Shown piece by piece: positions 41,640-54,390 of a stretch of DNA of 64,000 bases. The stretch covers positions 129,697 to 193,696 of the forward strand of contig JBMORU010000001.1 of the NCBI GenBank assembly GCA_049322215.1, in the 5' to 3' direction. Source of the DNA: Patescibacteria group bacterium (GTDB taxonomy: Bacteria > Patescibacteriota > WWE3 > UBA101185 > UBA10185). Each line of letters opens with the position of its first letter. Within the stretch, counting starts at the first letter, position 1. Below the pieces are notes generated by a model that saw only the letters and a list, made by a program, of their open reading frames with translations, was not told the origin of the DNA and ran no database searches. Made by a program: the position numbers and the translations under genes.

Positions 41640-43589
41640 ATGACTTTTTTTTACAGAACTTTTAAAGTTCTTCTGCCCATTGTAATACTCACCGTATTTT
41701 TTAACGCTGCACCCTACGTAAACGCAGCCACAAATACTTGGCAAAAAGGCTTAACCTTAAGACTAACAAATGAATCACAAAAAGATGTAGAAGCTTCTAT
41801 AGTACAAATGGCAGAAACAGGCGCTAACTATTTAACTATTACTCCTGGGTACGAAGTTGATAATAAATATGCCTCAAATGTAGATCCAAAGTCGCGTACT
41901 CCAAGTGATGAAATTTTAATTTTTGCTATAAATAAAGCACATGAATTAGACATGCAGGTAATGATAAAACCTCACATAGATAGAAAGGATGGCGGTTGGC
42001 GAGCATTTATTAATCCTACAAATAAAGCCGAATTCTTTAAAAACTATAAAAACATGATATTGCACTACGCAGTATTAGGTGAGCAATATGGTGTAGAACA
42101 ACTTTCTATTGGAGCAGAAACCTACGAGCTTAGTACAAACCCAAACAATGAACAATATTGGCGAGATATTATTTCTGAAGTAAGAAAAGTATATAGTGGA
42201 AAACTAACTTATAGCGCTAATTCTTATAGTGAATATTTTGACGAAGGCAACTTGCCCTTTGGAGACCTACTAGATGTATGGGGAATGTCAATGTACGTAG
42301 AGCTAGCAGCAAACAATAATCCACAAATAAGTGAATTATTAGAGCAGTGGAAAAAGGTAGAAACTGACTACATTTACCCAATATATGAAAAATGGAAAAA
42401 ACCAATAATATTTGCCGAAACTGGATACCGAAGTATAGATGGTGCTGGAATGGAACCTGATGATTTTAGTTCAACCGCAAAAGTAGATTTAGAAGAGCAA
42501 AATACTTTATACAAAGCAATGTTTGAGTTTTGGAAAGACAAAGACTATTTTGCAGGTTTACACATTTGGGACTGGAAACCCGACGTAAATGCAGGCGGTG
42601 ATGAAGATACTGATTACACACCACAAAATAAACCTGCACAAGAAACAATAAAACAATACTTTACACAAGTAAGTGATAATTCTAGTGAAGAGACTCAAAA
42701 TGAAAGCACTTCTGAAACTACAACAGCTGAAACAAATGCGGCAGAATTAATATTAAATCTAAAACCAACAGAGTACTTAATAAAAGAGTTAAAAACAGAA
42801 CTACAGTACTATTTCGATAGAAATTACGAAATAACGCAATACCCAGAATTGTTAAATGGAACGAAAGCAGTAGTAACAAGAAATGGAGATAAATACAATA
42901 ATTCTGAGACCTTTGTCAGCTTCAAAACAAATATCCAACTTTCGATTTTTTTGGCATATGATGCAAGAGCCACACAACTACCAAATTGGCTATCCAACTG
43001 GGAAAAAACCCCAATGACAATACAAACCACAGATAACAACTTCATGCTACTAGTAAAGAATTTCGAGGCTAACGAAACAGTAAACTTGGGAGGAAACAGT
43101 GCTACCGGAATGGTGGGTTCCCAAAGCAATTACTTTTTAATTTTAAAAGAGGGTAAATACGAAAACACAAGTACAACAACGGAAACTCAAACCCAATCCC
43201 CTGAAACCACTACCGAAACACCACCTAACGAAATAGTGGAAGAAGAAATAGTTGAAGAAATACCAACAGAAGAACCAGCTACAGAATCAAACATAAATGG
43301 CACACTTAAAATTGATTATCCTGAAACTGGCGATACATTATCGGGTGAAAGAAAACTCAAAGCCTACATTGAAGGACTAGCAACAAACAAATACTATGCC
43401 ACCTACTCAAAAGACGGATCAACAGAAATAATTATGGATTACGGATCTGATGATAAATATCAGCAAGAGAAAATTGATTTTGGTGAATGGAACGATAAAA
43501 ACGGGACACCGTACACAATAGAAGTAAAAGCATACGACCTTGAGAACAATTTAATAGACAAAACGTCTATACAGATATACATTAAATAG
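41640..43589 (+). CDS. secreted TIM-barrel glycoside hydrolase-like protein with a Thr/Glu-rich linker and C-terminal beta-domain
   Basis: Signal peptide 'VFFNAAPYVNAAT'. A clan GH-A-like 'IFAETGY' nucleophile context. The linker is TTTETQTQSPETTTETPPNE. Confidence 0.4.
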   Translation: MTFFYRTFKVLLPIVILTVFFNAAPYVNAATNTWQKGLTLRLTNESQKDVEASIVQMAETGANYLTITPGYEVDNKYASNVDPKSRTPSDEILIFAINKAHELDMQVMIKPHIDRKDGGWRAFINPTNKAEFFKNYKNMILHYAVLGEQYGVEQLSIGAETYELSTNPNNEQYWRDIISEVRKVYSGKLTYSANSYSEYFDEGNLPFGDLLDVWGMSMYVELAANNNPQISELLEQWKKVETDYIYPIYEKWKKPIIFAETGYRSIDGAGMEPDDFSSTAKVDLEEQNTLYKAMFEFWKDKDYFAGLHIWDWKPDVNAGGDEDTDYTPQNKPAQETIKQYFTQVSDNSSEETQNESTSETTTAETNAAELILNLKPTEYLIKELKTELQYYFDRNYEITQYPELLNGTKAVVTRNGDKYNNSETFVSFKTNIQLSIFLAYDARATQLPNWLSNWEKTPMTIQTTDNNFMLLVKNFEANETVNLGGNSATGMVGSQSNYFLILKEGKYENTSTTTETQTQSPETTTETPPNEIVEEEIVEEIPTEEPATESNINGTLKIDYPETGDTLSGERKLKAYIEGLATNKYYATYSKDGSTEIIMDYGSDDKYQQEKIDFGEWNDKNGTPYTIEVKAYDLENNLIDKTSIQIYIK

Positions 43590-44475: not shown

Positions 44476-46617
44476 CTACTCATAGCGTAAAGCATCCAGT
44501 GCCGATATGTTTTTAGATCTTTTTGCTGGATAAACACCCGTAAGCATTCCAACAAAAAAAGATAACACAACTATAATTAAAACAAAGCTTAGAGGTACAT
44601 ATGAAATATCTATATAACCTTCGCCTTTGAATAAAGAAAACATAGTTAATACTAAACCCAACAGTTTACCTGCAGCAGCTCCTACAAATAAGCCTCCAAA
44701 ACCGGCACAAAAACCCATTATGATAGATTCAGTTAAAAATAATTCCTGTACTTCTGAGGTTTTCATACCCATAGCTTTCATTAAACCCACCTCTCTTGTT
44801 CTTTCTAAAAGAGAAACAGTAAGAGTGTTAAACATACCTAATGAGGCTACCGTTAATGCAACCATACCCATAATACCTAAAATCAATCTTAAAGTGCCAA
44901 ACAGGCTGTTTATTTGAGCAACAGTGTCTACCACTGATTGTGTGGTGTAACCTAACGACTCAATTTGTTTACGAACTAAGTCTAAGCTGTCTGCTTTGTT
45001 AACCGCAACTTTAAATTGGGAATAATTTACAATACCTAAAGAACGTAAATCAACAAAGGGCACATAAAATAAGGGGGCACCCTCACCCGGTATTACTGCC
45101 TTTATAACGTATTCTTCAGGCTCTGATTCCACTCTTTTCTCAGAGTCACTTACTAGATCACTCGGTATGACAAAAACAGCACTAAAAGTTTTGCCTATGG
45201 CTTCTTCTTCATTTATACCTAATATTTGTAACATAGCGCGATTTACAACAGCCTCTTTTACTGCAGAATCTGAGAGCTTTACTGTATTGACTTCATTCAC
45301 AGGAACTACACTTTCTCCCGGTAACTCTACCCACTCCGAATTGGGATCAACTTGAAGATCAAATAAAGCATTTGCTGTGGTTTCAATTGCATCAGAAGTA
45401 GCTTCAATTGTTGTAGATGCGTTTGCGGCAACCTGAGTATCAGATTCACCTAAAACATCACCCTGATTAAAATTTATTGGCCTGGTTTTTAAATTTATGT
45501 GTGCCAAAAAACCTTCGCTTTGAACTTTGTTTCCTTCAGCATCGCGAACTAGTAAATAGGTGCCATCTACACAATCTACGTTGTTTGTATCACAAGGTAT
45601 TTCTTCCCATAAGTTAACTTTAGTAAGAACCCAAACACCAAGTGAATTCCCCTCACTATCCGTACCAAAACTTCCAAAAGATTCTTCGTCTTCATAAGAT
45701 TCACCATAGTAAGTTTCACCGTATAACGTCCCTTCGGGGCGTTTGGTATAACCAATTATAGAGTTACTTGTGCCAGGTCCTGAACGCACACGAAACCATT
45801 CTTGATGTTGCAATGCAACGTCAACATCATTTATTTTATCGCCATGTTTGCTTATAACATCTCGTTCATCACTCACACCCTGCACAGCCTCTTGATTTTG
45901 CCCAGCTTCAGGTGGGGCATAAGCAATAGATAAATCATTGCTTTCAAAAAGATCGCCTTTAACAGGCTTAATTGCGGATTGTTCCAAATAACCCCGAGTG
46001 ACGCCATAAACAGCCATGTCAGATACAGAGTTTTGATAGTTAACACGACCAACAACCGCAATTAAAGGATAAACTTCGGAAACATTTGTAAATGCTTTAA
46101 CATCGGAAATAGTTTTATCATCTATTTGTACTTTAGATCCAGGTTGAGTCGCAACATCTGCTTGCTTTAACTCGTCTAAACGCGCAACACGCGATACAAC
46201 TAACTCTTGAAGCCCATACCCTAAAGATACTAAAAACACTATGGCGGCTATACCTATAGAAACTCCCCCTATTGTAATCAACGTTCTAGTAGCTTTAAAC
46301 TTCATATTTCGTAAAGCCAATTCAATTAAATTCACTCTATTAATAGTGTTTTCACCATGTCTATTAAGATTGAGTAGTAAATCATATGCTTTAGAAACAG
46401 GAGGCAATATAAGTTTGGTTAAAAATTTAGGAAAATAACGCCAACTAGATATTTTAATTAGCACTACCATTACTAAATAAGATATTAATAGTATGAGAAA
46501 CGAGCCAAATCTTATGACTGTGTTTTTAAACTTAACTAAAAAGTCTTTAGAAAACAAAAATAATACAAATCTTAAAACTGCTTTTAAATTATTGATTACG
46601 TTTTTTATTATTTTCAT
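44476..46617 (-). CDS. MacB/FtsX-type ABC transporter permease with a large extracytoplasmic domain
   Basis: N-terminal TM, about 450-aa periplasmic region, C-terminal FtsX 3-TM module ('TREVGLMKAMGM…'). Confidence 0.8.
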   Translation of the reverse strand: MKIIKNVINNLKAVLRFVLFLFSKDFLVKFKNTVIRFGSFLILLISYLVMVVLIKISSWRYFPKFLTKLILPPVSKAYDLLLNLNRHGENTINRVNLIELALRNMKFKATRTLITIGGVSIGIAAIVFLVSLGYGLQELVVSRVARLDELKQADVATQPGSKVQIDDKTISDVKAFTNVSEVYPLIAVVGRVNYQNSVSDMAVYGVTRGYLEQSAIKPVKGDLFESNDLSIAYAPPEAGQNQEAVQGVSDERDVISKHGDKINDVDVALQHQEWFRVRSGPGTSNSIIGYTKRPEGTLYGETYYGESYEDEESFGSFGTDSEGNSLGVWVLTKVNLWEEIPCDTNNVDCVDGTYLLVRDAEGNKVQSEGFLAHINLKTRPINFNQGDVLGESDTQVAANASTTIEATSDAIETTANALFDLQVDPNSEWVELPGESVVPVNEVNTVKLSDSAVKEAVVNRAMLQILGINEEEAIGKTFSAVFVIPSDLVSDSEKRVESEPEEYVIKAVIPGEGAPLFYVPFVDLRSLGIVNYSQFKVAVNKADSLDLVRKQIESLGYTTQSVVDTVAQINSLFGTLRLILGIMGMVALTVASLGMFNTLTVSLLERTREVGLMKAMGMKTSEVQELFLTESIIMGFCAGFGGLFVGAAAGKLLGLVLTMFSLFKGEGYIDISYVPLSFVLIIVVLSFFVGMLTGVYPAKRSKNISALDALRYE

Positions 46618-46630
46618 TTTTTATAATAAC

Positions 46631-49600
46631 TTAATTACCAGTATTTAAACCCTCTAAAAAGCCAAACGTTTCACTTAAATTAGATATGACTAGATTTAAA
46701 GCATTATCAGAAGCTTTAGGCGTTATACTTACAGTATCAATTGATTTTGCTTCATTATTGGCTTTATCTTTTGAGATTGCACGCAAGTGATAAACTTTAG
46801 ATGTATTTAAGCCTGTTAAAATTACCACGTGGTTGTAAGTTAAACTAGAATCTTCCTGACTTTTTTGAGAATATGTTGTACCAGTACCCTCACCAAACTC
46901 TACTTGAGAAGTAGCCGGCTCATCTGTATCCCAACTTACAACTAATTGAGCAGAAGCTTCATTATTATTCGCTTTTGTAATAGAACCTTCAACTTTAAGG
47001 TTAGTAATAGATGGCGGTCGTGTATCTGTTGCGGTCGTTACGCGCTGTGGATCACTAACTGCCTCATTGCCTGCTTTATCTCTACCTTTTACTATCATTA
47101 TGTAGGTTGTTTCTGGTAGCAAGCCTCTAATAATCAGCCTATGCGCGCCTGTAACTAATTGAACATTAACTTCGTCTCTCACATCTGCAGGGTTATTCTC
47201 AGGGTAATAAGTAATTATTGAAGAAACTTCTGTGTTAGTTACCCAAGATACTAAAGTAGCCGGTTGTGCTGAATTTCTAACCTGCTGTACTTTAACTCCA
47301 GATATTCTTGGGCGAGGTAATGTTTCAAAAGACAAAATATTACCTTCGTATTCTGCATCTTCTGTATCAAAAGTATTAATTTTATAAAAATATTTAATCC
47401 CGTCTTCTAACTCTTCTAAAGCGGTGTTGTAGGTAGTTTCTGCTGTGGATGTTGAAAGTTCTAAAGACCCCCCAAAGGCAGATGTTTTCCCATAGTAAAT
47501 TTTTACTTTAGAAGCACCTTTTACAGTGTATTGTAAAACAACGTTATTTATTCCAATTGTTTTTGCACTTGGATCTTTTACTGAGGGTGCGGGCTCTGTT
47601 TCAAAAGTAAATTCATCGCTTACTCCCGTATTACCGTCTTCATCGGTCCATTTTGCCAAAGCATAATACTTGGTACCCGGGCTTAAATTAGTTAAATTAA
47701 TTTCATGTGCAGTAACTTGAGTTGAATTTGAAGGCTCCTCATCAAAATAGTCACCAGAGCTTTTACCATACTGAACTTTAGAATCACTAGTTCTGTCAGT
47801 TGACCAGGATATAATAGCTTGTTTTGTAGTAATACCTGTAACCTCAGGATCGGTTTCTAAACCAGCAGCTTCTGTGAATTTACCTGTAGGTAAAAGTACA
47901 ACTGCAGTACTAAAGGCACCACAATTTGAAACACTGTCACAAGCACGAACCTTATAATAATAATTTTGCTGTAGCAAATTAGTATCTATATATGCTAAAC
48001 CTGTGGTGGTAGCAAGCAAACTATAAGAACTACCATCAGTAGAGCTGTGTATTTGATATGTAGATACCCCTGAACCAACATCTGAAGGAGCTGTCCAAGA
48101 AAGTGCTAAACGCCAAGACTCGGTACTTTTTATGGATACATCAGAAATATCCAAATTAAGTGGTATACCCGGAGCAGAAGTATTAGCCGTAAAAGATATA
48201 CTTGCATAAGCACCGTAGTTAATACTCCCACCAACATCCGAACTATTTTTGGCAGCAATATAAAAAGTATTAATTCCTACCTGCGTCGCAAATGAGCTGG
48301 CAGAAAGCGATGTAGCACCAGCACTAGTATAAGTACATGTTGCAGACGAGGGTAAAGTATTAACTGTGTAGCAATAGGTTAAGCCACTAGATTCTCCCGA
48401 GTAAGTTTCAGGAATCTGCCAGGAAAAAGAAAACGAATTTACAGTATTGGTAGTTGGAGTAACAGATAAAAATCTTGGAGCCGTGGGTCCTTCGCCTGCA
48501 AAGTAGTAAGTTGCTTGCAAACTTGTGGCAGAAACATTTCCCGCAGTATCTACAGTACGTAAGTAAAATGTATTTGCGTCTGTTTGGTAAGCGGCTTCAG
48601 CAATTTCTACAGAAGTATCGGTGGTTGTACTCGACCAATCACTCAAAGCACCCGAAGAAGCGCCTGTTTTATATTGATAACCCGCAATCCCAGATCCCGT
48701 ATCGCTTGCAATACCATCCCCAACAGATGGCCAAGAAAATGTAAAAGAATTAGTTGAAGCATAGCCCGAGGGTGTAACGGTTATAGTGCTAGGGTTTGAT
48801 GGGTTTGTGTTGTCATACTTATATATAAATGGGGCATAAACGGTGCTTACGTTTTGAGCATTGTCTTTAGTTTGAATTCTTAAATAATATGTTTGTCCAC
48901 TTGTTAAACTTGCTGCAGAATAGCTTGTACCTGTTTGAAATACACCTGCAGTAGAAGGAACGGCAGCACTATCTGTACCAAAGTAAACAAAGTATCCGGC
49001 AATGCCTGCTCCACCAGAGTCAGAAGCCCCCGCCCATGAAAAATAGGGTGTCGCATAGCTATACCAGTTATTAGTGCTAATTGAAATTCCTCCGGAAGTA
49101 CTCAACGAAGTTAAACTACTTGGAGGGTTTGGGTCTGTTGTGTCTGAATTTGCCTCTACTGTTACCGAACTTAAAGTTACTTCCTGCGTTCCATCACCAT
49201 CTAGTACTGCTTGCCACTTAATACCACTACTTGTGACAGGAAAAGAAGGTATATTTGTATTAACTACGGAAGCCGCGTTTGCTTGTGCTGTTGACGCTGA
49301 TGTTTCCCAAGAGTCACCATCCCAATACTTCCAAGTAGAACCATTATCGCTAGATAACCTATATGTAATTGTTCCACCATTGGCTGTTTCAGAAACAACA
49401 AAACCCGCATAGCTTCCAATATCTTCAGTAAAGGCGGCTGCTGCATTTTGCACTGTTTGAGCAGCGCTAGCGTAAGCGGAGGTATTAAAAGAGCTGCGTG
49501 CAGTATCGCTTATACGAACTTCATCTATCAACCCTTGAAAGTATCCTTGAGCACGACCTTGTTCTCTACCTGCATAAGTAGCACCTATTAGCAAATCATG

Positions 49601-52540
49601 ACTACCATCGGGCATAGAAACAGAAGCAGATGTAGAATTATCTAAAACACCATCTATGTAAAGTTTCATTGTGGAGCCATCGTAGGTTGCAGCCACATGA
49701 TGCCAAGAAGTATTTTGACTTGCGGTTGTAGATTGCAGATATGCGTTGCTCCCATAAGACCAAACAGCAGCATCTACGTTTGCTGACAATCCAGTACCTG
49801 CAAATAAACTACCCCTATACACACTAAAGCTAGAAACTTCCTCTGTAACATTGGTCCAACCGTCATTTAAACTATCACCGCCTATTTGTTCCCAACTAGA
49901 ACCATTCCAACGCCAAACTTCACCATCGCCACCACCGCTTCCAATGCCGGCATATAAATCCCCGTTGTAAACTACTAAAGTACGTACGCGTTCATAAGTT
50001 CCGGTAGTCCAACTTGAATTTACTTCATCACCCCCAACTTGAGTCCAACTTGTTCCATTGTAGCTCCATACCTCGGCATCTCCGGTTCCGGTACCTAAAC
50101 CCGCATATAAAACACCGTTATAAACAATCATGCTGTCTACATGTTCAAAACTGGTAGAATCCCAACTACTGTTTACTGTGTCTCCCCCTACCTTTGTCCA
50201 AGTACTACCTCCCCAGCGCCATACTTCAGCTTCACCTGCACCTGATCCTAAGCCGGCATATAGCTGCCCATTAAACACTGTCATAGAAGCTACCCTATTG
50301 TAGCCAGTAGTCCAACCACTGTTTGTACTATCACCACCTATTTTAGTCCATGAAATACCGTCCCAAGACCAAACTTCAGCATCACTATTACTATTTCCCA
50401 AACCTGCATATAGTAAATCACCATAAGTGGCCATTGAAGTAACTTCTTCAAAATTTGTAGTCCAACCACTGTTTGTACTATCACCACCTATTTTAGTCCA
50501 CGAAGTACCGTTCCACTGCCAAACTTCAGCATCATTAGCAGAAATACCCAAACCAACAGTAAGAGTACCCTTATAACTCACCATGCTAAGCACTGACTCA
50601 TATGTATCGGCAGCCCAGCCGCTATTTAAACCCTGGCCTCCAATAAGATCCCAAGTAGAACCATCATATTCCCATACAAGCGCGTTTCCCGAATTAGTTT
50701 GACCTAAACCAGCGTATAAATTAGCTCCCGAAACCTGCATTGTTTCAACATTACGCAACCCTCTAAAACCCCAACTATCGTTTACATAATCACCACCTAA
50801 TTGAGTCCAAGTATCGGTGCCGTTAAAACTCCATACTTGTGCAGATCTAGCAGCATTACCAGAACTTAAACCTGTGTAAACTGTAGAACCATTAACTGCC
50901 AGTGCTTGAACAATAGTGTGCGTAGTACCGGTATAACCCGAATTTACTCCATCACCGCCTACTTTTGTCCAAGAGGAGCCACCCCAACGCCAAAGCTCGT
51001 TATCACCCCCGGACGCCCCCAATCCAGCATATAAATAAGTCCCATCATTTAACAATGAATAGACGCCCTCATAATTTGTAGTCCAACCACTATTTAAACT
51101 ATCACCACCAATTTGTGTCCAGGATGTTCCGTTCCAACTCCATACTTCGGCATCATTTGCGGAAGTACCAACACCCGCATACAAAGTACCCCCAAAGTAT
51201 TCCATGCTTAAAACATATTCAAACGTAGAGTTTGCCCAGCTACTATTAACGGCATCTCCACCTATACGGCTCCAAGTTCCACCAGATATACTGTACCTCC
51301 ATACTTCTGCATCACCCGCAGTTAAACCAAGTCCAGCGTATATATAAGTGCCATCAGTTTCCAAAGAAGATACCTGCTCAAAATTAGTAGTCCAACCGCT
51401 ATTTACACTATCACCACCAATTTTTGTCCATGTGCTGCCATTCCAACTCCATACTTCTGCATCATTTGCCGAAGTTCCTAAGCCTGCATATAAAATGCCA
51501 TTTTCGTAAAGTAAGCTGTAAACACCTTCAAAAGTGTTTACTTGCCAACTGCTATTAACAGCGTCTCCACCTATTTTAGTCCAGGTACCAGCACTAACAT
51601 TGTATCTCCAAACCTCGCCATCTCCAGCGGTAGTTCCTAAACCCACATAAACATTAGTACCATCGTTTGCCATAGACCATACACTTTCAAAAGTTGCAGC
51701 AGCCCAACTGCTGTTAACAGCATCGCCACCTACTTGTTCCCAAGTATTACCATCCCAACTCCACACATCAGCATCTCCATTACCGCTACCTAAACCCACA
51801 TACAAAATAGAGTTAAGATACGTCATAGAACTCAAGAGTACTTTTCCGTCCAAGTCCCAACTACCATCTATGTCATTACCAGCTCTTCTTGTCCATGATG
51901 TTTCGGTACTATCAGCAACTTCATAAGTTAACTTGCCTGTTTCGTTATCATAGTAAAGCTGGTAAACCCCCTTATCAACAACACCCTGACGCTGTACATG
52001 ACTTCCACTTGAAAAAGCAGCATCAAACTTTGTCCATGCCTCAAGAGTATTAGCTTGTTCTAAAGACAAAGACACTGAATCAGAAACACTAACTTTAGAA
52101 GAAGTGCCATTTAAATCCAAAGCGTTATTTAAATTTCCTGACGCCCACGTAGGATCGGTTGCAGTACCCGTATTTGAGTTGCTTGAAGAGTCTGCAACAG
52201 TAGTTCCTGATGCTTCGTCTAAATGGTACAAAGCCACAGTATTAGCGTCGGAAGCATAATTTTGAACTTTTAGTTTTGCCGAATTAGAAGCAACTTCTAC
52301 ATAATTGCTGTCTGATAACGTGTAATCACCTGAATTGGAAAAATCCCAATCGTATGAAACATCCCCAGCTGCAAGTACATTTTTTACAGTTAAAAACACT
52401 ACAAATAGAGACACTACTGTTAAACCTATAAATACACGGTTATTATCTTTAACAACAATTGTAGTTACACTATTTCTGTTTTTTTTTAAGAAGCGGTTAG
52501 ATAAAACTGATAAAGGCTTTTTTAGCCATACTTTAGTCAT
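46631..52540 (-). CDS. giant cell-surface protein: N-terminal TM, LamG_3, about 20 tandem ~47-aa repeats, second LamG, multiple FN3-like domains
   Basis: 1969 aa. 'ALYHLDEASGTTVADSSSNSNTGT' is the LamG_3 signature. Repeats of the form 'GLG.SANDAEVWSWNGTSWTKIGGDSVNSGWT'. 'LYIDGVLDN…DEVRISDTARS' is LamG. C-terminal beta-sandwich repeats. Confidence 0.8.
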   Translation of the reverse strand: MTKVWLKKPLSVLSNRFLKKNRNSVTTIVVKDNNRVFIGLTVVSLFVVFLTVKNVLAAGDVSYDWDFSNSGDYTLSDSNYVEVASNSAKLKVQNYASDANTVALYHLDEASGTTVADSSSNSNTGTATDPTWASGNLNNALDLNGTSSKVSVSDSVSLSLEQANTLEAWTKFDAAFSSGSHVQRQGVVDKGVYQLYYDNETGKLTYEVADSTETSWTRRAGNDIDGSWDLDGKVLLSSMTYLNSILYVGLGSGNGDADVWSWDGNTWEQVGGDAVNSSWAAATFESVWSMANDGTNVYVGLGTTAGDGEVWRYNVSAGTWTKIGGDAVNSSWQVNTFEGVYSLLYENGILYAGLGTSANDAEVWSWNGSTWTKIGGDSVNSGWTTNFEQVSSLETDGTYIYAGLGLTAGDAEVWRYSISGGTWSRIGGDAVNSSWANSTFEYVLSMEYFGGTLYAGVGTSANDAEVWSWNGTSWTQIGGDSLNSGWTTNYEGVYSLLNDGTYLYAGLGASGGDNELWRWGGSSWTKVGGDGVNSGYTGTTHTIVQALAVNGSTVYTGLSSGNAARSAQVWSFNGTDTWTQLGGDYVNDSWGFRGLRNVETMQVSGANLYAGLGQTNSGNALVWEYDGSTWDLIGGQGLNSGWAADTYESVLSMVSYKGTLTVGLGISANDAEVWQWNGTSWTKIGGDSTNSGWTTNFEEVTSMATYGDLLYAGLGNSNSDAEVWSWDGISWTKIGGDSTNSGWTTGYNRVASMTVFNGQLYAGLGSGAGEAEVWRWGGSTWTKVGGDTVNSSWDSTSFEHVDSMIVYNGVLYAGLGTGTGDAEVWSYNGTSWTQVGGDEVNSSWTTGTYERVRTLVVYNGDLYAGIGSGGGDGEVWRWNGSSWEQIGGDSLNDGWTNVTEEVSSFSVYRGSLFAGTGLSANVDAAVWSYGSNAYLQSTTASQNTSWHHVAATYDGSTMKLYIDGVLDNSTSASVSMPDGSHDLLIGATYAGREQGRAQGYFQGLIDEVRISDTARSSFNTSAYASAAQTVQNAAAAFTEDIGSYAGFVVSETANGGTITYRLSSDNGSTWKYWDGDSWETSASTAQANAASVVNTNIPSFPVTSSGIKWQAVLDGDGTQEVTLSSVTVEANSDTTDPNPPSSLTSLSTSGGISISTNNWYSYATPYFSWAGASDSGGAGIAGYFVYFGTDSAAVPSTAGVFQTGTSYSAASLTSGQTYYLRIQTKDNAQNVSTVYAPFIYKYDNTNPSNPSTITVTPSGYASTNSFTFSWPSVGDGIASDTGSGIAGYQYKTGASSGALSDWSSTTTDTSVEIAEAAYQTDANTFYLRTVDTAGNVSATSLQATYYFAGEGPTAPRFLSVTPTTNTVNSFSFSWQIPETYSGESSGLTYCYTVNTLPSSATCTYTSAGATSLSASSFATQVGINTFYIAAKNSSDVGGSINYGAYASISFTANTSAPGIPLNLDISDVSIKSTESWRLALSWTAPSDVGSGVSTYQIHSSTDGSSYSLLATTTGLAYIDTNLLQQNYYYKVRACDSVSNCGAFSTAVVLLPTGKFTEAAGLETDPEVTGITTKQAIISWSTDRTSDSKVQYGKSSGDYFDEEPSNSTQVTAHEINLTNLSPGTKYYALAKWTDEDGNTGVSDEFTFETEPAPSVKDPSAKTIGINNVVLQYTVKGASKVKIYYGKTSAFGGSLELSTSTAETTYNTALEELEDGIKYFYKINTFDTEDAEYEGNILSFETLPRPRISGVKVQQVRNSAQPATLVSWVTNTEVSSIITYYPENNPADVRDEVNVQLVTGAHRLIIRGLLPETTYIMIVKGRDKAGNEAVSDPQRVTTATDTRPPSITNLKVEGSITKANNNEASAQLVVSWDTDEPATSQVEFGEGTGTTYSQKSQEDSSLTYNHVVILTGLNTSKVYHLRAISKDKANNEAKSIDTVSITPKASDNALNLVISNLSETFGFLEGLNTGN

Positions 52541-52547
52541 TTATATT

Positions 52548-53489
52548 TCAAAAATTAAGATAATTATATGCCTCACTAGAAAGTTTTTCCATGAAATTTA
52601 ACGCAGAAGCACGCCCTGTATCTGTTGTGTCAGCAACAAATACAGTAATCAAATATGGCTTATTTGGAACATACACAATACCACTATCTAAATATAAACC
52701 TTCTTGATTTTTTTCACCAAATTTATGAGCAAAAACCACATCGGAAGACAACCCACTATTAAGATATTCGTCATAGGGTGATTTTGATAGCCAAAAAAGC
52801 ATTTGTTGAGATGATTCTCTATTTAAGTAACTAGAAGTGTATAGGGCGCGAAATAGCCTAGAGTACTCCTTAGCTGAAATCTCTCCGGCTTCGTTAAAAA
52901 GTTCTTCTAATCCTAAAGTATCACCAAATTGAGTTACGTCGTTTAGCGATAAATTTTTATATAAAATATTATGCGCAGTGTTATCTGAATTAATTAACGA
53001 TTGTTGAAGTAATTCGTCTAAAGTAAATGTTGCTCCGGGTTTACTTTTATATAAATCACCCCAACCTGAATCTCTATCTTCTTCTGTTAAGTTAAATTCA
53101 GTATCCATCGCAAGTACACCCTCCTCTATTTTTTTCATATACATCATAGCTACTGGAACCTTAGTTAAACTTGCAGGATTAACGCGCATTTCGGGATTTA
53201 AAGAAATGTTAGAGCCTGTATTAAGAAACTCAATATATACAGAAATTGAGGCGTCTGGATAACTGCTTAAAAGGTTTACTGCGTATTCTCTTAAAGGTTT
53301 TAAATTAACAATAAAATACTTTTGCTCTATAAAACTTCGTGAAAAATCTATAAATGGATATGGGTTAGTTAGTGAGGTAGCCTCAAAACTTTTTCTATAG
53401 TGCGAAGATACATACAAAGTAGTAAAGTTGCTCAATAGCAAAACTATAATTATAATTATGTACCCTCTATTTCTTAATTTCATAGGCAT
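52548..53489 (-). CDS. signal-anchored serine hydrolase, class A beta-lactamase / D-Ala-D-Ala carboxypeptidase-like
   Basis: 'ASLTK' (SxxK) and 'SDNTAHNIL' (SDN) motifs; N-terminal TM. Confidence 0.55.
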   Translation of the reverse strand: MPMKLRNRGYIIIIIVLLLSNFTTLYVSSHYRKSFEATSLTNPYPFIDFSRSFIEQKYFIVNLKPLREYAVNLLSSYPDASISVYIEFLNTGSNISLNPEMRVNPASLTKVPVAMMYMKKIEEGVLAMDTEFNLTEEDRDSGWGDLYKSKPGATFTLDELLQQSLINSDNTAHNILYKNLSLNDVTQFGDTLGLEELFNEAGEISAKEYSRLFRALYTSSYLNRESSQQMLFWLSKSPYDEYLNSGLSSDVVFAHKFGEKNQEGLYLDSGIVYVPNKPYLITVFVADTTDTGRASALNFMEKLSSEAYNYLNF

Positions 53490-53571: not shown

Positions 53572-54390
53572 ATGAATGAAGTTACTACAAGTCCTACAAC
53601 TCCTATAATTTCTATTGAAGATGTACATAAAAGCTTTCAAGTTGGAATACAAGATATTCAAATACTCAAAGGAGTAGATGTAAAAATAAATTACGGAGAC
53701 TTTGCGGTCATTATTGGACCATCAGGCTGCGGAAAATCTACACTTCTGCACATTTTGTTAGGACTGGAGCCTCCTACTAAAGGCATAGTTAAATTTTTGG
53801 GATCAGACTTATATGCCGGTACTAATGAAGATACTCGCTCAGACTTTAGAAAAAAGCACATAGGAATGGTATATCAACAAGCCAACTGGATCAAATCTTT
53901 AACTGTGATTGAAAACGTATCGTTTCCGTTATTACTACTAGGAATAGGAAAACCTAAAGCTATGGCTAAAGCTTATGAAATGTTAAAAAAAGTTAACATG
54001 CAAGATTGGGGAGATTACATACCTACAGAGCTATCTGGAGGACAACAACAAAGGGTGGCTTTAGCAAGAGCATTAATTAATAACCCCGAAATTATAATTG
54101 CAGATGAACCTACAGGAAACCTGGACTACGAAGCCGGTCAAAATATAATGACGCTTTTGACAAACTTAAATAATGAATTTGGAAAAACCGTAATTATGGT
54201 AACGCATGACTTAGAATACATTTCTTATGCAAAAACTACAGTTAGACTTTTAGACGGAAAAGTATTAGGCATTTACAATGAAGGTCAAAAAGATAAATTA
54301 ATGGAAGAACTAAAATTTAAACGACTGGGTGATATGAAAGCAAAATTACAAGAAAGTGAAAACATAACACCTGCACCAGCAACTAACTAA
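53572..54390 (+). CDS. ABC transporter ATP-binding protein (MacB/LolD/FtsE-like)
   Basis: Walker A 'GPSGCGKST', signature 'LSGGQQQRVALARAL', Walker B 'IIIADEPTGNLD'. Confidence 0.9.
   Translation: MNEVTTSPTTPIISIEDVHKSFQVGIQDIQILKGVDVKINYGDFAVIIGPSGCGKSTLLHILLGLEPPTKGIVKFLGSDLYAGTNEDTRSDFRKKHIGMVYQQANWIKSLTVIENVSFPLLLLGIGKPKAMAKAYEMLKKVNMQDWGDYIPTELSGGQQQRVALARALINNPEIIIADEPTGNLDYEAGQNIMTLLTNLNNEFGKTVIMVTHDLEYISYAKTTVRLLDGKVLGIYNEGQKDKLMEELKFKRLGDMKAKLQESENITPAPATN

Follow-up and report, generated by a model that had tools for sequence, protein, structure and literature searches.

Fourteen Kelch-like repeats within one LamG domain of a giant, predicted surface protein of Patescibacteria

What kind of repeat fills the centre of a giant patescibacterial protein, and what might such a protein do at the cell envelope? 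These questions are raised by a stretch of 64,000 nucleotides (hereafter, the window) from a Patescibacteria group bacterium (GenBank assembly GCA_049322215.1, contig JBMORU010000001.1, positions 129,697 to 193,696), in which one open reading frame (ORF) of the minus strand encodes a protein of 1969 amino acids (aa). The initial annotation, made by eye from the sequence, described about 20 tandem repeats of ~47 aa in this protein, possibly a new family of beta-propeller blades, lying between two LamG domains. With moderate confidence, we favour a joint reading in which divergent Kelch repeats form a double propeller inserted in one LamG domain, the whole serving as a ligand-binding, adhesion-type head on the cell surface, with a link to an ATP-binding cassette (ABC) system.

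The repeat array and the LamG domain around it

The protein was parsed into repeat units by anchoring the unit boundaries on the motif G-G-D-x-x-N-x-x-W. The array was found to consist of 14 consecutive units of 50-54 aa each (about 51 aa), extending over residues 216-932 (window positions 49745-51895), with the unit motif W-T-K-I-G-G-D-x-V-N-S-x-W ... V-x-S ... L-Y-A-G-L-G ... D-A-E-V-W-x-W-N-G-x-x. Identity between units ranged from 25 to 71%, with a mean of 47%, and five columns were invariant across the 14 units (W1, G6, G34, G36, and W45). Local alignment of unit pairs gave a mean BLOSUM62 score of 129.9, versus 29.4 ± 0.8 for shuffled units, so that the repeat goes far beyond chance; the regular tandem pattern and the motif noticed by eye were thus confirmed. 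The count, period, and limits first given for the array had to be corrected. The protein contained 14 units rather than about 20, a number that was found again in the DNA repeat family of the region (14 copies); the units were longer than the ~47 aa proposed; and the interval from 49270 to 51850 (residues 231-1091), in which the repeats had been placed, missed the start of blade 1 and overshot the last blade by ~475 nt, a segment covering the C-terminal half of the LamG domain and part of the next domain.

From the N- to the C-terminus, the protein was characterized by a hydrophobic anchor or signal, the N-terminal half of a LamG domain, the 14 blades, the C-terminal half of the LamG domain, a middle beta domain, a chain of FN3-like domains, and a conserved C-terminal motif. 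These features were located as follows:

46631..52540, minus strand: giant ORF, 1969 aa (ORF list and translation)
52358..52444, minus strand: hydrophobic segment, residues 33-61, VFIGLTVVSLFVVFLTVKNVLAAG (Kyte-Doolittle scan)
51896..52111, minus strand: N-terminal half of the LamG domain, residues 144-215, matched by Pfam Laminin_G_3 once the two halves were joined
50810..51895, minus strand: modelled propeller 1, blades 1-7, residues 216-577, 50-54 aa each (repeat parsing, DNA copies, AlphaFold2)
49745..50809, minus strand: modelled propeller 2, blades 8-14, residues 578-932 (AlphaFold2, Foldseek)
49493..49744, minus strand: C-terminal half of the LamG domain, residues 933-1016 (Pfam Laminin_G_3, partial profile)
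49061..49453, minus strand: middle domain of ~130 aa between the LamG domain and the FN3 chain (no Pfam match; conserved by tblastn)
46718..49060, minus strand: chain of about eight FN3/Ig-like domains (Pfam fn3, Pur_ac_phosph_N, and Ig_Rha78A_N matches)
46658..46717, minus strand: C-terminal motif, KASDNALNLVISNLSETFGF (from 70 full-length orthologues aligned over their last 90 aa)

An N-terminal LamG_3 domain and a second LamG domain had been annotated on either side of the repeats. In the native sequence, Pfam matched Laminin_G_3 at residues 923-1016 only (profile positions 55/67-146), and the N-terminal 230 aa alone gave no Pfam match. When residues 58-215 were joined to residues 930-1031, one continuous Laminin_G_3 match was obtained (profile positions 1-146/151), which scored 93 bits, as compared with 72.7 bits for the C-terminal part alone. 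The domain exceeded the gathering score as a continuous domain only after this in silico removal of the propellers, and one orthologue (P0011) exhibited the same partial match. Because the joined halves gave a single uninterrupted match of 93 bits, the profile evidence identifies the two supposed domains as the halves of one LamG (ConA-like lectin) jelly roll, into a loop of which the 717-aa double propeller is inserted. This domain probably starts near residue 100.

Residues 33-61 were the sole hydrophobic segment that the Kyte-Doolittle scan detected in the whole protein; they are predicted to be a Sec signal peptide whose n-region is long or, alternatively, an N-terminal membrane anchor. 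The FN3-like chain, which the initial annotation had recognised and which the Pfam matches bore out, is presumed to be a stalk. It had also been described as rich in Ser and Thr, but these residues accounted for 26% of the chain, barely exceeding the 24% of the whole protein. The C-terminal motif, with the consensus A-[ST]-D-[SN]-A-L-x-x-V-[IV]-x-x-L-x-x-x-F-G-[FL] in the 70 full-length orthologues, could be a docking or sorting signal. An antisense ORF of 112 aa with a GTG start, located within the giant gene (49074-49412, plus strand), is most likely spurious.

Propeller fold and relationship to Kelch repeats

To describe the fold of the array, we used an AlphaFold2 model of residues 201-935, built with 36 homologues. 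The model had a predicted local distance difference test score (pLDDT) of 90 and a predicted TM-score (pTM) of 0.88, and exhibited four strands per unit, with a short 3-10 turn at V-N-S. The strands corresponded to D (W-T-K-I-G-G), A (V-x-S-M-x-x), B (L-Y-A-G-L-G), and C (A-E-V-W-x-W). Residues 572-940, modelled alone, gave a pLDDT of 88 and a pTM of 0.90, with a total of 28 strands (7 x 4). With high confidence, the models resolve the 14 units into two tandem seven-bladed beta-propellers with four strands per unit, in agreement with the blade reading of the initial annotation. The strand count suggests that the last blade would be closed by the D strand at the N-terminus (W-T-Q-L-G-G).

A Foldseek search with the two-propeller model retrieved tandem seven-bladed doubles, namely the WD40 pairs of UTP and Elp2, Aip1, PorZ, GH74, and the BT4663 sensor. 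The TM-scores were low, ranging from 0.3 to 0.5 (0.28-0.39 for the double-propeller analogues PorZ, GH74, and BT4663), as would be expected were the two propellers set at another angle to each other. With the single propeller (residues 572-940), the top matches were seven-bladed: the best PDB match was the EPTP domain of LGI1 (E 5.5e-10, TM 0.65), with seven-bladed WD40 propellers close behind (TM 0.55-0.6, 10-12% identity), and the highest identity (18%) was recorded for six-bladed Kelch domains. Among family members, blade counts peaked at 7 and 14, and two proteins had 21. Of the proteins noted for their large arrays (P0121, P0122, and P0125), P0125, with 5722 aa, exhibited 47-60 detectable units, so that the repeat also occurs in far larger arrays than that of the window. 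Per-position conservation revealed no clear face bias, the blade-specific conserved positions being scattered over the D-A, A-B, and B-C loops.

By eye, the repeat could not be placed in Kelch, YVTN, PQQ, NHL, or WD40, and indeed no curated model claimed it. The Pfam scan of the giant protein gave no model at threshold over the repeats and hence no clean match to a known propeller repeat: the best score was that of Kelch_6 (21.3 bits, for a cut-off of 25.3), with Kelch_4 and Kelch_1 scoring far lower. NCBIfam gave nothing for the repeat region, and PDB sequence searches with the whole array and the 14-blade profile gave nothing significant, the only match being LGI1 (phmmer E 0.82). WD40 models matched neither the giant protein nor any of 37 family members, and the 51-aa units do not carry the GH/WD signature. 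We also considered an Asp-box/BNR assignment for the W-N-G-x-S-W turn, which was rejected on inspection of its spacing, with no BNR or Sortilin match. Kelch models (Kelch_1-6 and Kelch_KLHDC2_KLHL20_DRC7) belong to the Pfam clan Beta_propeller. In the family as a whole, the 37 members gave weak matches in a minority of cases, to Rax2, Kelch_4, Kelch_6, Reg_prop, and DUF6242, and any given Kelch model matched only 2-3 of the 37 at E <= 0.01. One orthologue (P0001) scored just above the thresholds of Kelch_4 (23.0 versus 21.6) and Kelch_1 (21.9 versus 20.1), and P0011 was also borderline.

Direct comparison with Kelch proteins was more informative. In the database search, the repeat region matched the Kelch proteins P0090, P0100, and P0101 with E-values of 5.6e-25 to 2.9e-19; in a Pfam re-scan of two of them, P0090 scored as Kelch at E 7e-86 and P0101 at E 9e-111. 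BLASTP against P0090 gave an E-value of 2e-13 over 678 columns, blade on blade, and aligned L-Y-A-G-L-G...D-A-E-V-W-S-W-N-G-T-S-W-T on L-F-G-G...N-D-T-W-T-W-D-G-S-T-W-T. When the 14-blade profile was aligned by hhalign with 15 canonical Kelch blades, the match had a probability of 84.6% and an E-value of 6.9e-6, and covered strands A-B-C only. At the positions of the Kelch signature residues, the repeats had L-Y-A-G-L-G (G-x-G instead of G-G), E-V-W (Trp for the Kelch Tyr), and a Trp in strand D. Since Kelch proteins were matched in blade register, the profiles aligned, and the Kelch scores came near threshold, the sequence comparisons place the repeats in a divergent Kelch-type subfamily that has no Pfam or NCBIfam model of its own, and not in a new fold. 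Judging by the alignments, the hallmark of this subfamily is the D-to-A loop G-G-D-x-V-N-S-x-W, which replaces the usual P-x-x-R loop. The idea of a new repeat family thus holds insofar as no dedicated model exists, and fails insofar as the repeats are homologous to Kelch. The subfamily is a small one: among 1.84 billion representative proteins, 1,514 matched at E <= 1e-3, 525 at E <= 1e-10, and 137 at E <= 1e-30.

Conservation, gene neighbourhood, and phage relatives

Relatives were sought by scanning one genome per GTDB species with an alignment of eight close sequences. A relative was recovered in at least 214 species genomes, most of them from Saccharimonadia. In the best 80 of the 214, the whole array was covered, with an identity of 50-69%; nearly all of these 80 genomes are labelled Saccharibacteria, Saccharimonadales, Saccharimonadia, or Patescibacteria, and a few automatically named metagenome-assembled genomes are labelled otherwise. 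By themselves, these relatives and a GC content of 35% would point most likely to Saccharimonadia for the window too, whose GTDB lineage is given as WWE3.

For locus comparison, we used 82 orthologous loci (L001-L082). The giant gene was a single ORF in 75 of them, and in 5 the FN3 chain was encoded by a separate downstream ORF. Exactly 14 units were present in 79 of the 82 loci, which come from independent assemblies; the remaining 3 loci had 13 units, which probably reflects contig truncation or a blade below the profile threshold. In the closest orthologue, 13 of the 14 blades paired one-to-one with those of the window, and among the more distant orthologues used for comparison, most still had the distinctive blades 1, 8, and 14 mapping to themselves. 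Median identity to the window was 57% for the propellers, 56-57% for the LamG halves, and 52% for the middle domain; it was 46% for the neighbouring ABC ATPase, 45% for the FN3 chain, and 34% for the permease.

The genes surrounding the giant gene in the window were the following:

44476..46617, minus strand: FtsX/MacB-type ABC permease, 713 aa (Pfam FtsX and MacB_PCD above cut-off)
53572..54390, plus strand: LolD/FtsE/MacB-type ABC ATPase, 272 aa (Pfam ABC_tran above cut-off)
52548..53489, minus strand: class A beta-lactamase/penicillin-binding protein (PBP)-like gene, 313 aa (Pfam Beta-lactamase2; NCBIfam bla_class_A below cut-off)
41640-43589, plus strand: protein with GH113 and GTA_TIM-barrel matches, 649 aa (Pfam), 3 kb from the giant gene

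Wherever the contig was long enough, the same colinear order was observed: LamG N-terminal half, propellers, LamG C-terminal half, middle domain, FN3 chain, ABC ATPase, and FtsX/MacB permease. The ABC gene was present in 75 and the FtsX gene in 73 of the 82 loci. In the window, the permease gene begins 13 bp downstream of the giant gene. The ATPase gene, which lies between the giant gene and the permease in most orthologous loci, is here located upstream and divergent, beyond the beta-lactamase/PBP-like gene; it is the putative partner of the window permease. According to their sequences, the ATPase and the FtsX-type four-transmembrane permease belong to the MacB/LolCDE/FtsEX (type VII) ABC group. 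The best NCBIfam matches of the ATPase were LolD, FtsE, and MacB, none at equivalog level and all far below cut-offs, and those of the permease were MacB/LolCE/FtsX-like, likewise below cut-offs. The window permease is of a long form which, by hydropathy, carries one more hydrophobic segment at its N-terminus and has ~425 aa in an extracytoplasmic region, ~350 aa of which had no Pfam match; other genomes carry a short form of 409 aa.

The beta-lactamase/PBP-like gene precedes the giant gene on the minus strand, ending 7 bp before it, and was found as a neighbour elsewhere in two loci only (L026 and L043). The GH113-like gene was not part of the conserved cassette either. A protein of 760 aa in which 12 blades are joined to the last transmembrane helices of FtsX (P0026; L084, 6001-8283) was examined as a propeller-permease link and was not relied on. 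At its junction (...LYAGLG|MFNT...), a few residues are identical to the permease (...SLGMFNT...), and its N-terminus lies within a blade; rather than a true fusion, the protein probably represents a deletion product or a chimera of the assembly.

Several of the database matches were phage tail proteins, in which Phage-tail_3 and Rcc01698_C are followed by a seven-blade copy of the giant-protein repeat. The gene for one of these (P0044; L083, 10001-12925) follows the tape-measure and distal-tail genes of a siphovirus-like tail module, and the same arrangement was observed on one IMG/VR contig (L085, 6483-9020). The N-terminal ~465 aa of both proteins matched PHROG 4271, annotated as 'tail protein'. 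The phage blades were 44-48% identical to those of the window and kept the motifs G-G-D-x-L-N-S-G-W and D-A-E-V-W. P0044 has an extra C-terminal domain of ~130 aa after the propeller. The neighbours of the model in BFVD were mostly phage virion or fibre-type proteins. The position of the module, at the distal end of the tail protein, suggests that it may bind cell-surface structures.

Possible roles and comparison with known systems

How might such a protein work? In the reading that we favour, the LamG domain and the nested double propeller would form the N-terminal head of a Sec-exported protein displayed on the cell surface, with the FN3 chain as its stalk. An extracellular location is predicted because the protein has a single N-terminal hydrophobic segment and consists of FN3 and LamG domains. 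The head would recognise a conserved glycan of the cell envelope, in a ligand-binding or adhesion role. Such a role is proposed because the same module occurs in phage tail proteins and because the double-propeller analogues bind polysaccharides: PorZ, GH74, and the BT4663 sensor bind (or cleave) such polymers. The giant protein probably acts together with the linked MacB/FtsX-type ABC pair, which may, in turn, anchor, install or assemble, or mechanically actuate it.

Several observations weigh against this reading. The head is more conserved than the ABC ATPase, the FN3 chain, and the permease, unlike a fast-evolving adhesin for host specificity; this conservation fits a conserved ligand or a structural role in the envelope better. 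No LamG_3 or Kelch protein is listed in the annotation table of Southlakia epibionticum, an organism amenable to genetics, which is why at least that lineage seems able to live as an epibiont without the giant protein. Two essential 'FN3'/'VCBS' proteins of this organism, SEML1_0890 and SEML1_0891, were rejected as orthologues: they have 195 and 565 aa and FG-GAP/lysozyme-like content, and the table of that genome has no LamG_3 or Kelch entry. The hydropathy scan and the translation revealed neither a C-terminal transmembrane segment nor an LPXTG motif in the giant protein, and hence no recognisable wall-anchoring signal. The structure search alone does not single out Kelch, as the EPTP domain of LGI1 scored best and WD40 propellers similarly.

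The conservation of the head would also fit the most probable of the alternatives, namely that the protein is a structural component of the envelope (for example, a surface layer or scaffold) rather than an adhesin, its head serving for self-assembly or holding the protein to the wall of the cell that makes it, with the ABC/FtsX pair assisting its installation. Besides the head being more conserved than the adjacent ATPase and permease, each of the 82 loci has one copy of the 14-blade array at the syntenic position, with a fixed blade number, and blades 1, 8, and 14 keep their place in most orthologues compared. Yet the same propeller is found at the receptor-binding end of phage tail proteins, which points to recognition of a foreign surface; Pfam and NCBIfam scans detected no S-layer or wall-binding domains (SLH, LysM); and the protein is apparently absent from Southlakia epibionticum. 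We consider a structural role possible but unlikely.

A bolder version of the adhesion-type reading, which we offer as a long shot, would make the cassette an envelope apparatus of environmental Saccharimonadia, so far undescribed. In such an apparatus, a type VII ABC mechanotransducer would grip the giant protein by its conserved C-terminal motif A-S-D-x-A-L...F-G-F and, driven by ATP, extend or withdraw a glycan-binding head with which the epibiont docks on its host, the propeller having been exchanged with phage receptor-binding proteins. To our knowledge, host recognition and attachment by epibionts of the Candidate Phyla Radiation (CPR)/Patescibacteria are largely unknown beyond type IV pili.

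Could the double propeller be catalytic, acting on wall polysaccharide of the host as a GH74-like hydrolase or lyase with an inter-propeller cleft, or as a galactose-oxidase-like Kelch enzyme? GH74 structures (2ebs, 1sqj, and 6p2l) were among the two-propeller Foldseek matches, with the highest identities of the list (14-15%), a polysaccharide lyase propeller (7esl) was among the single-domain matches, and a GH113-like gene lies 3 kb away. The TM-scores to GH74 were, however, only 0.28-0.38, and in the family scans the repeat region matched neither a glycoside hydrolase nor an oxidase or BNR/Asp-box family. Residues that the 14 blades all have in common resemble scaffold positions rather than one active site, and the GH113-like gene is outside the conserved cassette. 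A catalytic role thus appears very improbable.

The initial annotation had also described the underlying DNA as correspondingly repetitive and warned of assembly collapse. The DNA repeat family (D3) had its 14 copies at a spacing of 150-162 nt, the copies being 60-79% identical; the longest exact repeat was 44 nt, between two adjacent units; and Tandem Repeats Finder reported no array. The DNA is therefore not strongly repetitive, and in view of these values and of the 14 units in 79 of the 82 loci, collapse is unlikely. That the repeat number is an artefact of units collapsed or expanded in a repetitive gene would agree with the internal similarity of the array and the 44-nt exact match, but is almost certainly wrong, given the divergence of the DNA copies, the blank Tandem Repeats Finder result, the intact ORF, the constant count in independently assembled loci, and the one-to-one pairing of 13 blades with the closest orthologue. 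Positions 48001-52000 had a GC content of 42-43%, versus ~35% elsewhere, with a GC skew of -0.38 at 50001-52000; this composition fits Gly/Trp-rich coding on the minus strand.

With its domain map corrected, the giant protein emerges as one of the best-conserved large (predicted) surface proteins of Saccharimonadia, and we found no description of it in the literature on Saccharibacteria or CPR and Kelch, LamG, or propellers. Beyond the repeat that first drew attention, the analysis adds the nested LamG/double-propeller head, a MacB-type ABC cassette found throughout Saccharimonadia, and a module common to phage tails. Without a dedicated model, members of the family are annotated only as 'LamG domain-containing' or 'hypothetical', a shortcoming that could be remedied with a curated model. 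Practical gains are limited, as the function is so far a prediction and the gene seems to be missing from the strain best suited to genetic work.

Among known systems, the EPTP/EAR domain of LGI1 (5y2z, 8y6b), an extracellular ligand-binding domain, has seven blades of ~50 aa and was the best structural match of the single propeller. It is animal-specific, however, and has no significant sequence similarity to the giant protein, to which the EPTP model gave no match at E <= 1 in the Pfam scan. As WD40 propellers scored almost equally, the modelled likeness to LGI1 is at the level of the general fold. PorZ (5m11), the GH74 xyloglucanases (2ebs, 6p2l), and the BT4663 sensor (4a2m) resemble the giant protein in being bacterial, extracytoplasmic (as is predicted for the giant protein), and equipped with two seven-bladed propellers in a row, but are built of other repeat families (Asp-box/BNR, Reg_prop), align with low TM-scores, and have no detectable sequence relationship to it.

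As for the cassette, MacB, LolCDE, and FtsEX have an ATPase and a permease of the same type as those next to the giant gene, and members of the type VII group pass ATP-driven movement to extracytoplasmic partners. The partnership with the giant protein differs in resting on synteny, with no equivalog-level match, and we know of no type VII member that pairs with a giant propeller/LamG/FN3 protein. The phage tail proteins (P0044 and L085) have the same repeat but one propeller instead of two, located in the C-terminal part of a tail protein, and have no LamG domain, FN3 chain, or ABC cassette.

Compared with Kelch proteins, the giant protein scores below every Kelch gathering score, has G-L-G instead of G-G, and carries the G-G-D-x-V-N-S-x-W loop with its short 3-10 turn, which lies outside the hhalign alignment, in place of the Kelch P-x-x-R; its two tandem propellers are, moreover, nested in a LamG domain. 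Shared with Kelch are the unit of ~50 aa (the Kelch range being ~44-56 aa), modelled as one four-stranded antiparallel blade; a strand B that is hydrophobic and closes with a pair of Gly residues, followed by an aromatic residue in strand C and by a Trp in strand D; and significant sequence matches in blade register, for example to bacterial Kelch proteins with the pattern W-x-W-D-G-x-x-W. Seven blades are also found among Kelch proteins, as in galactose oxidase.

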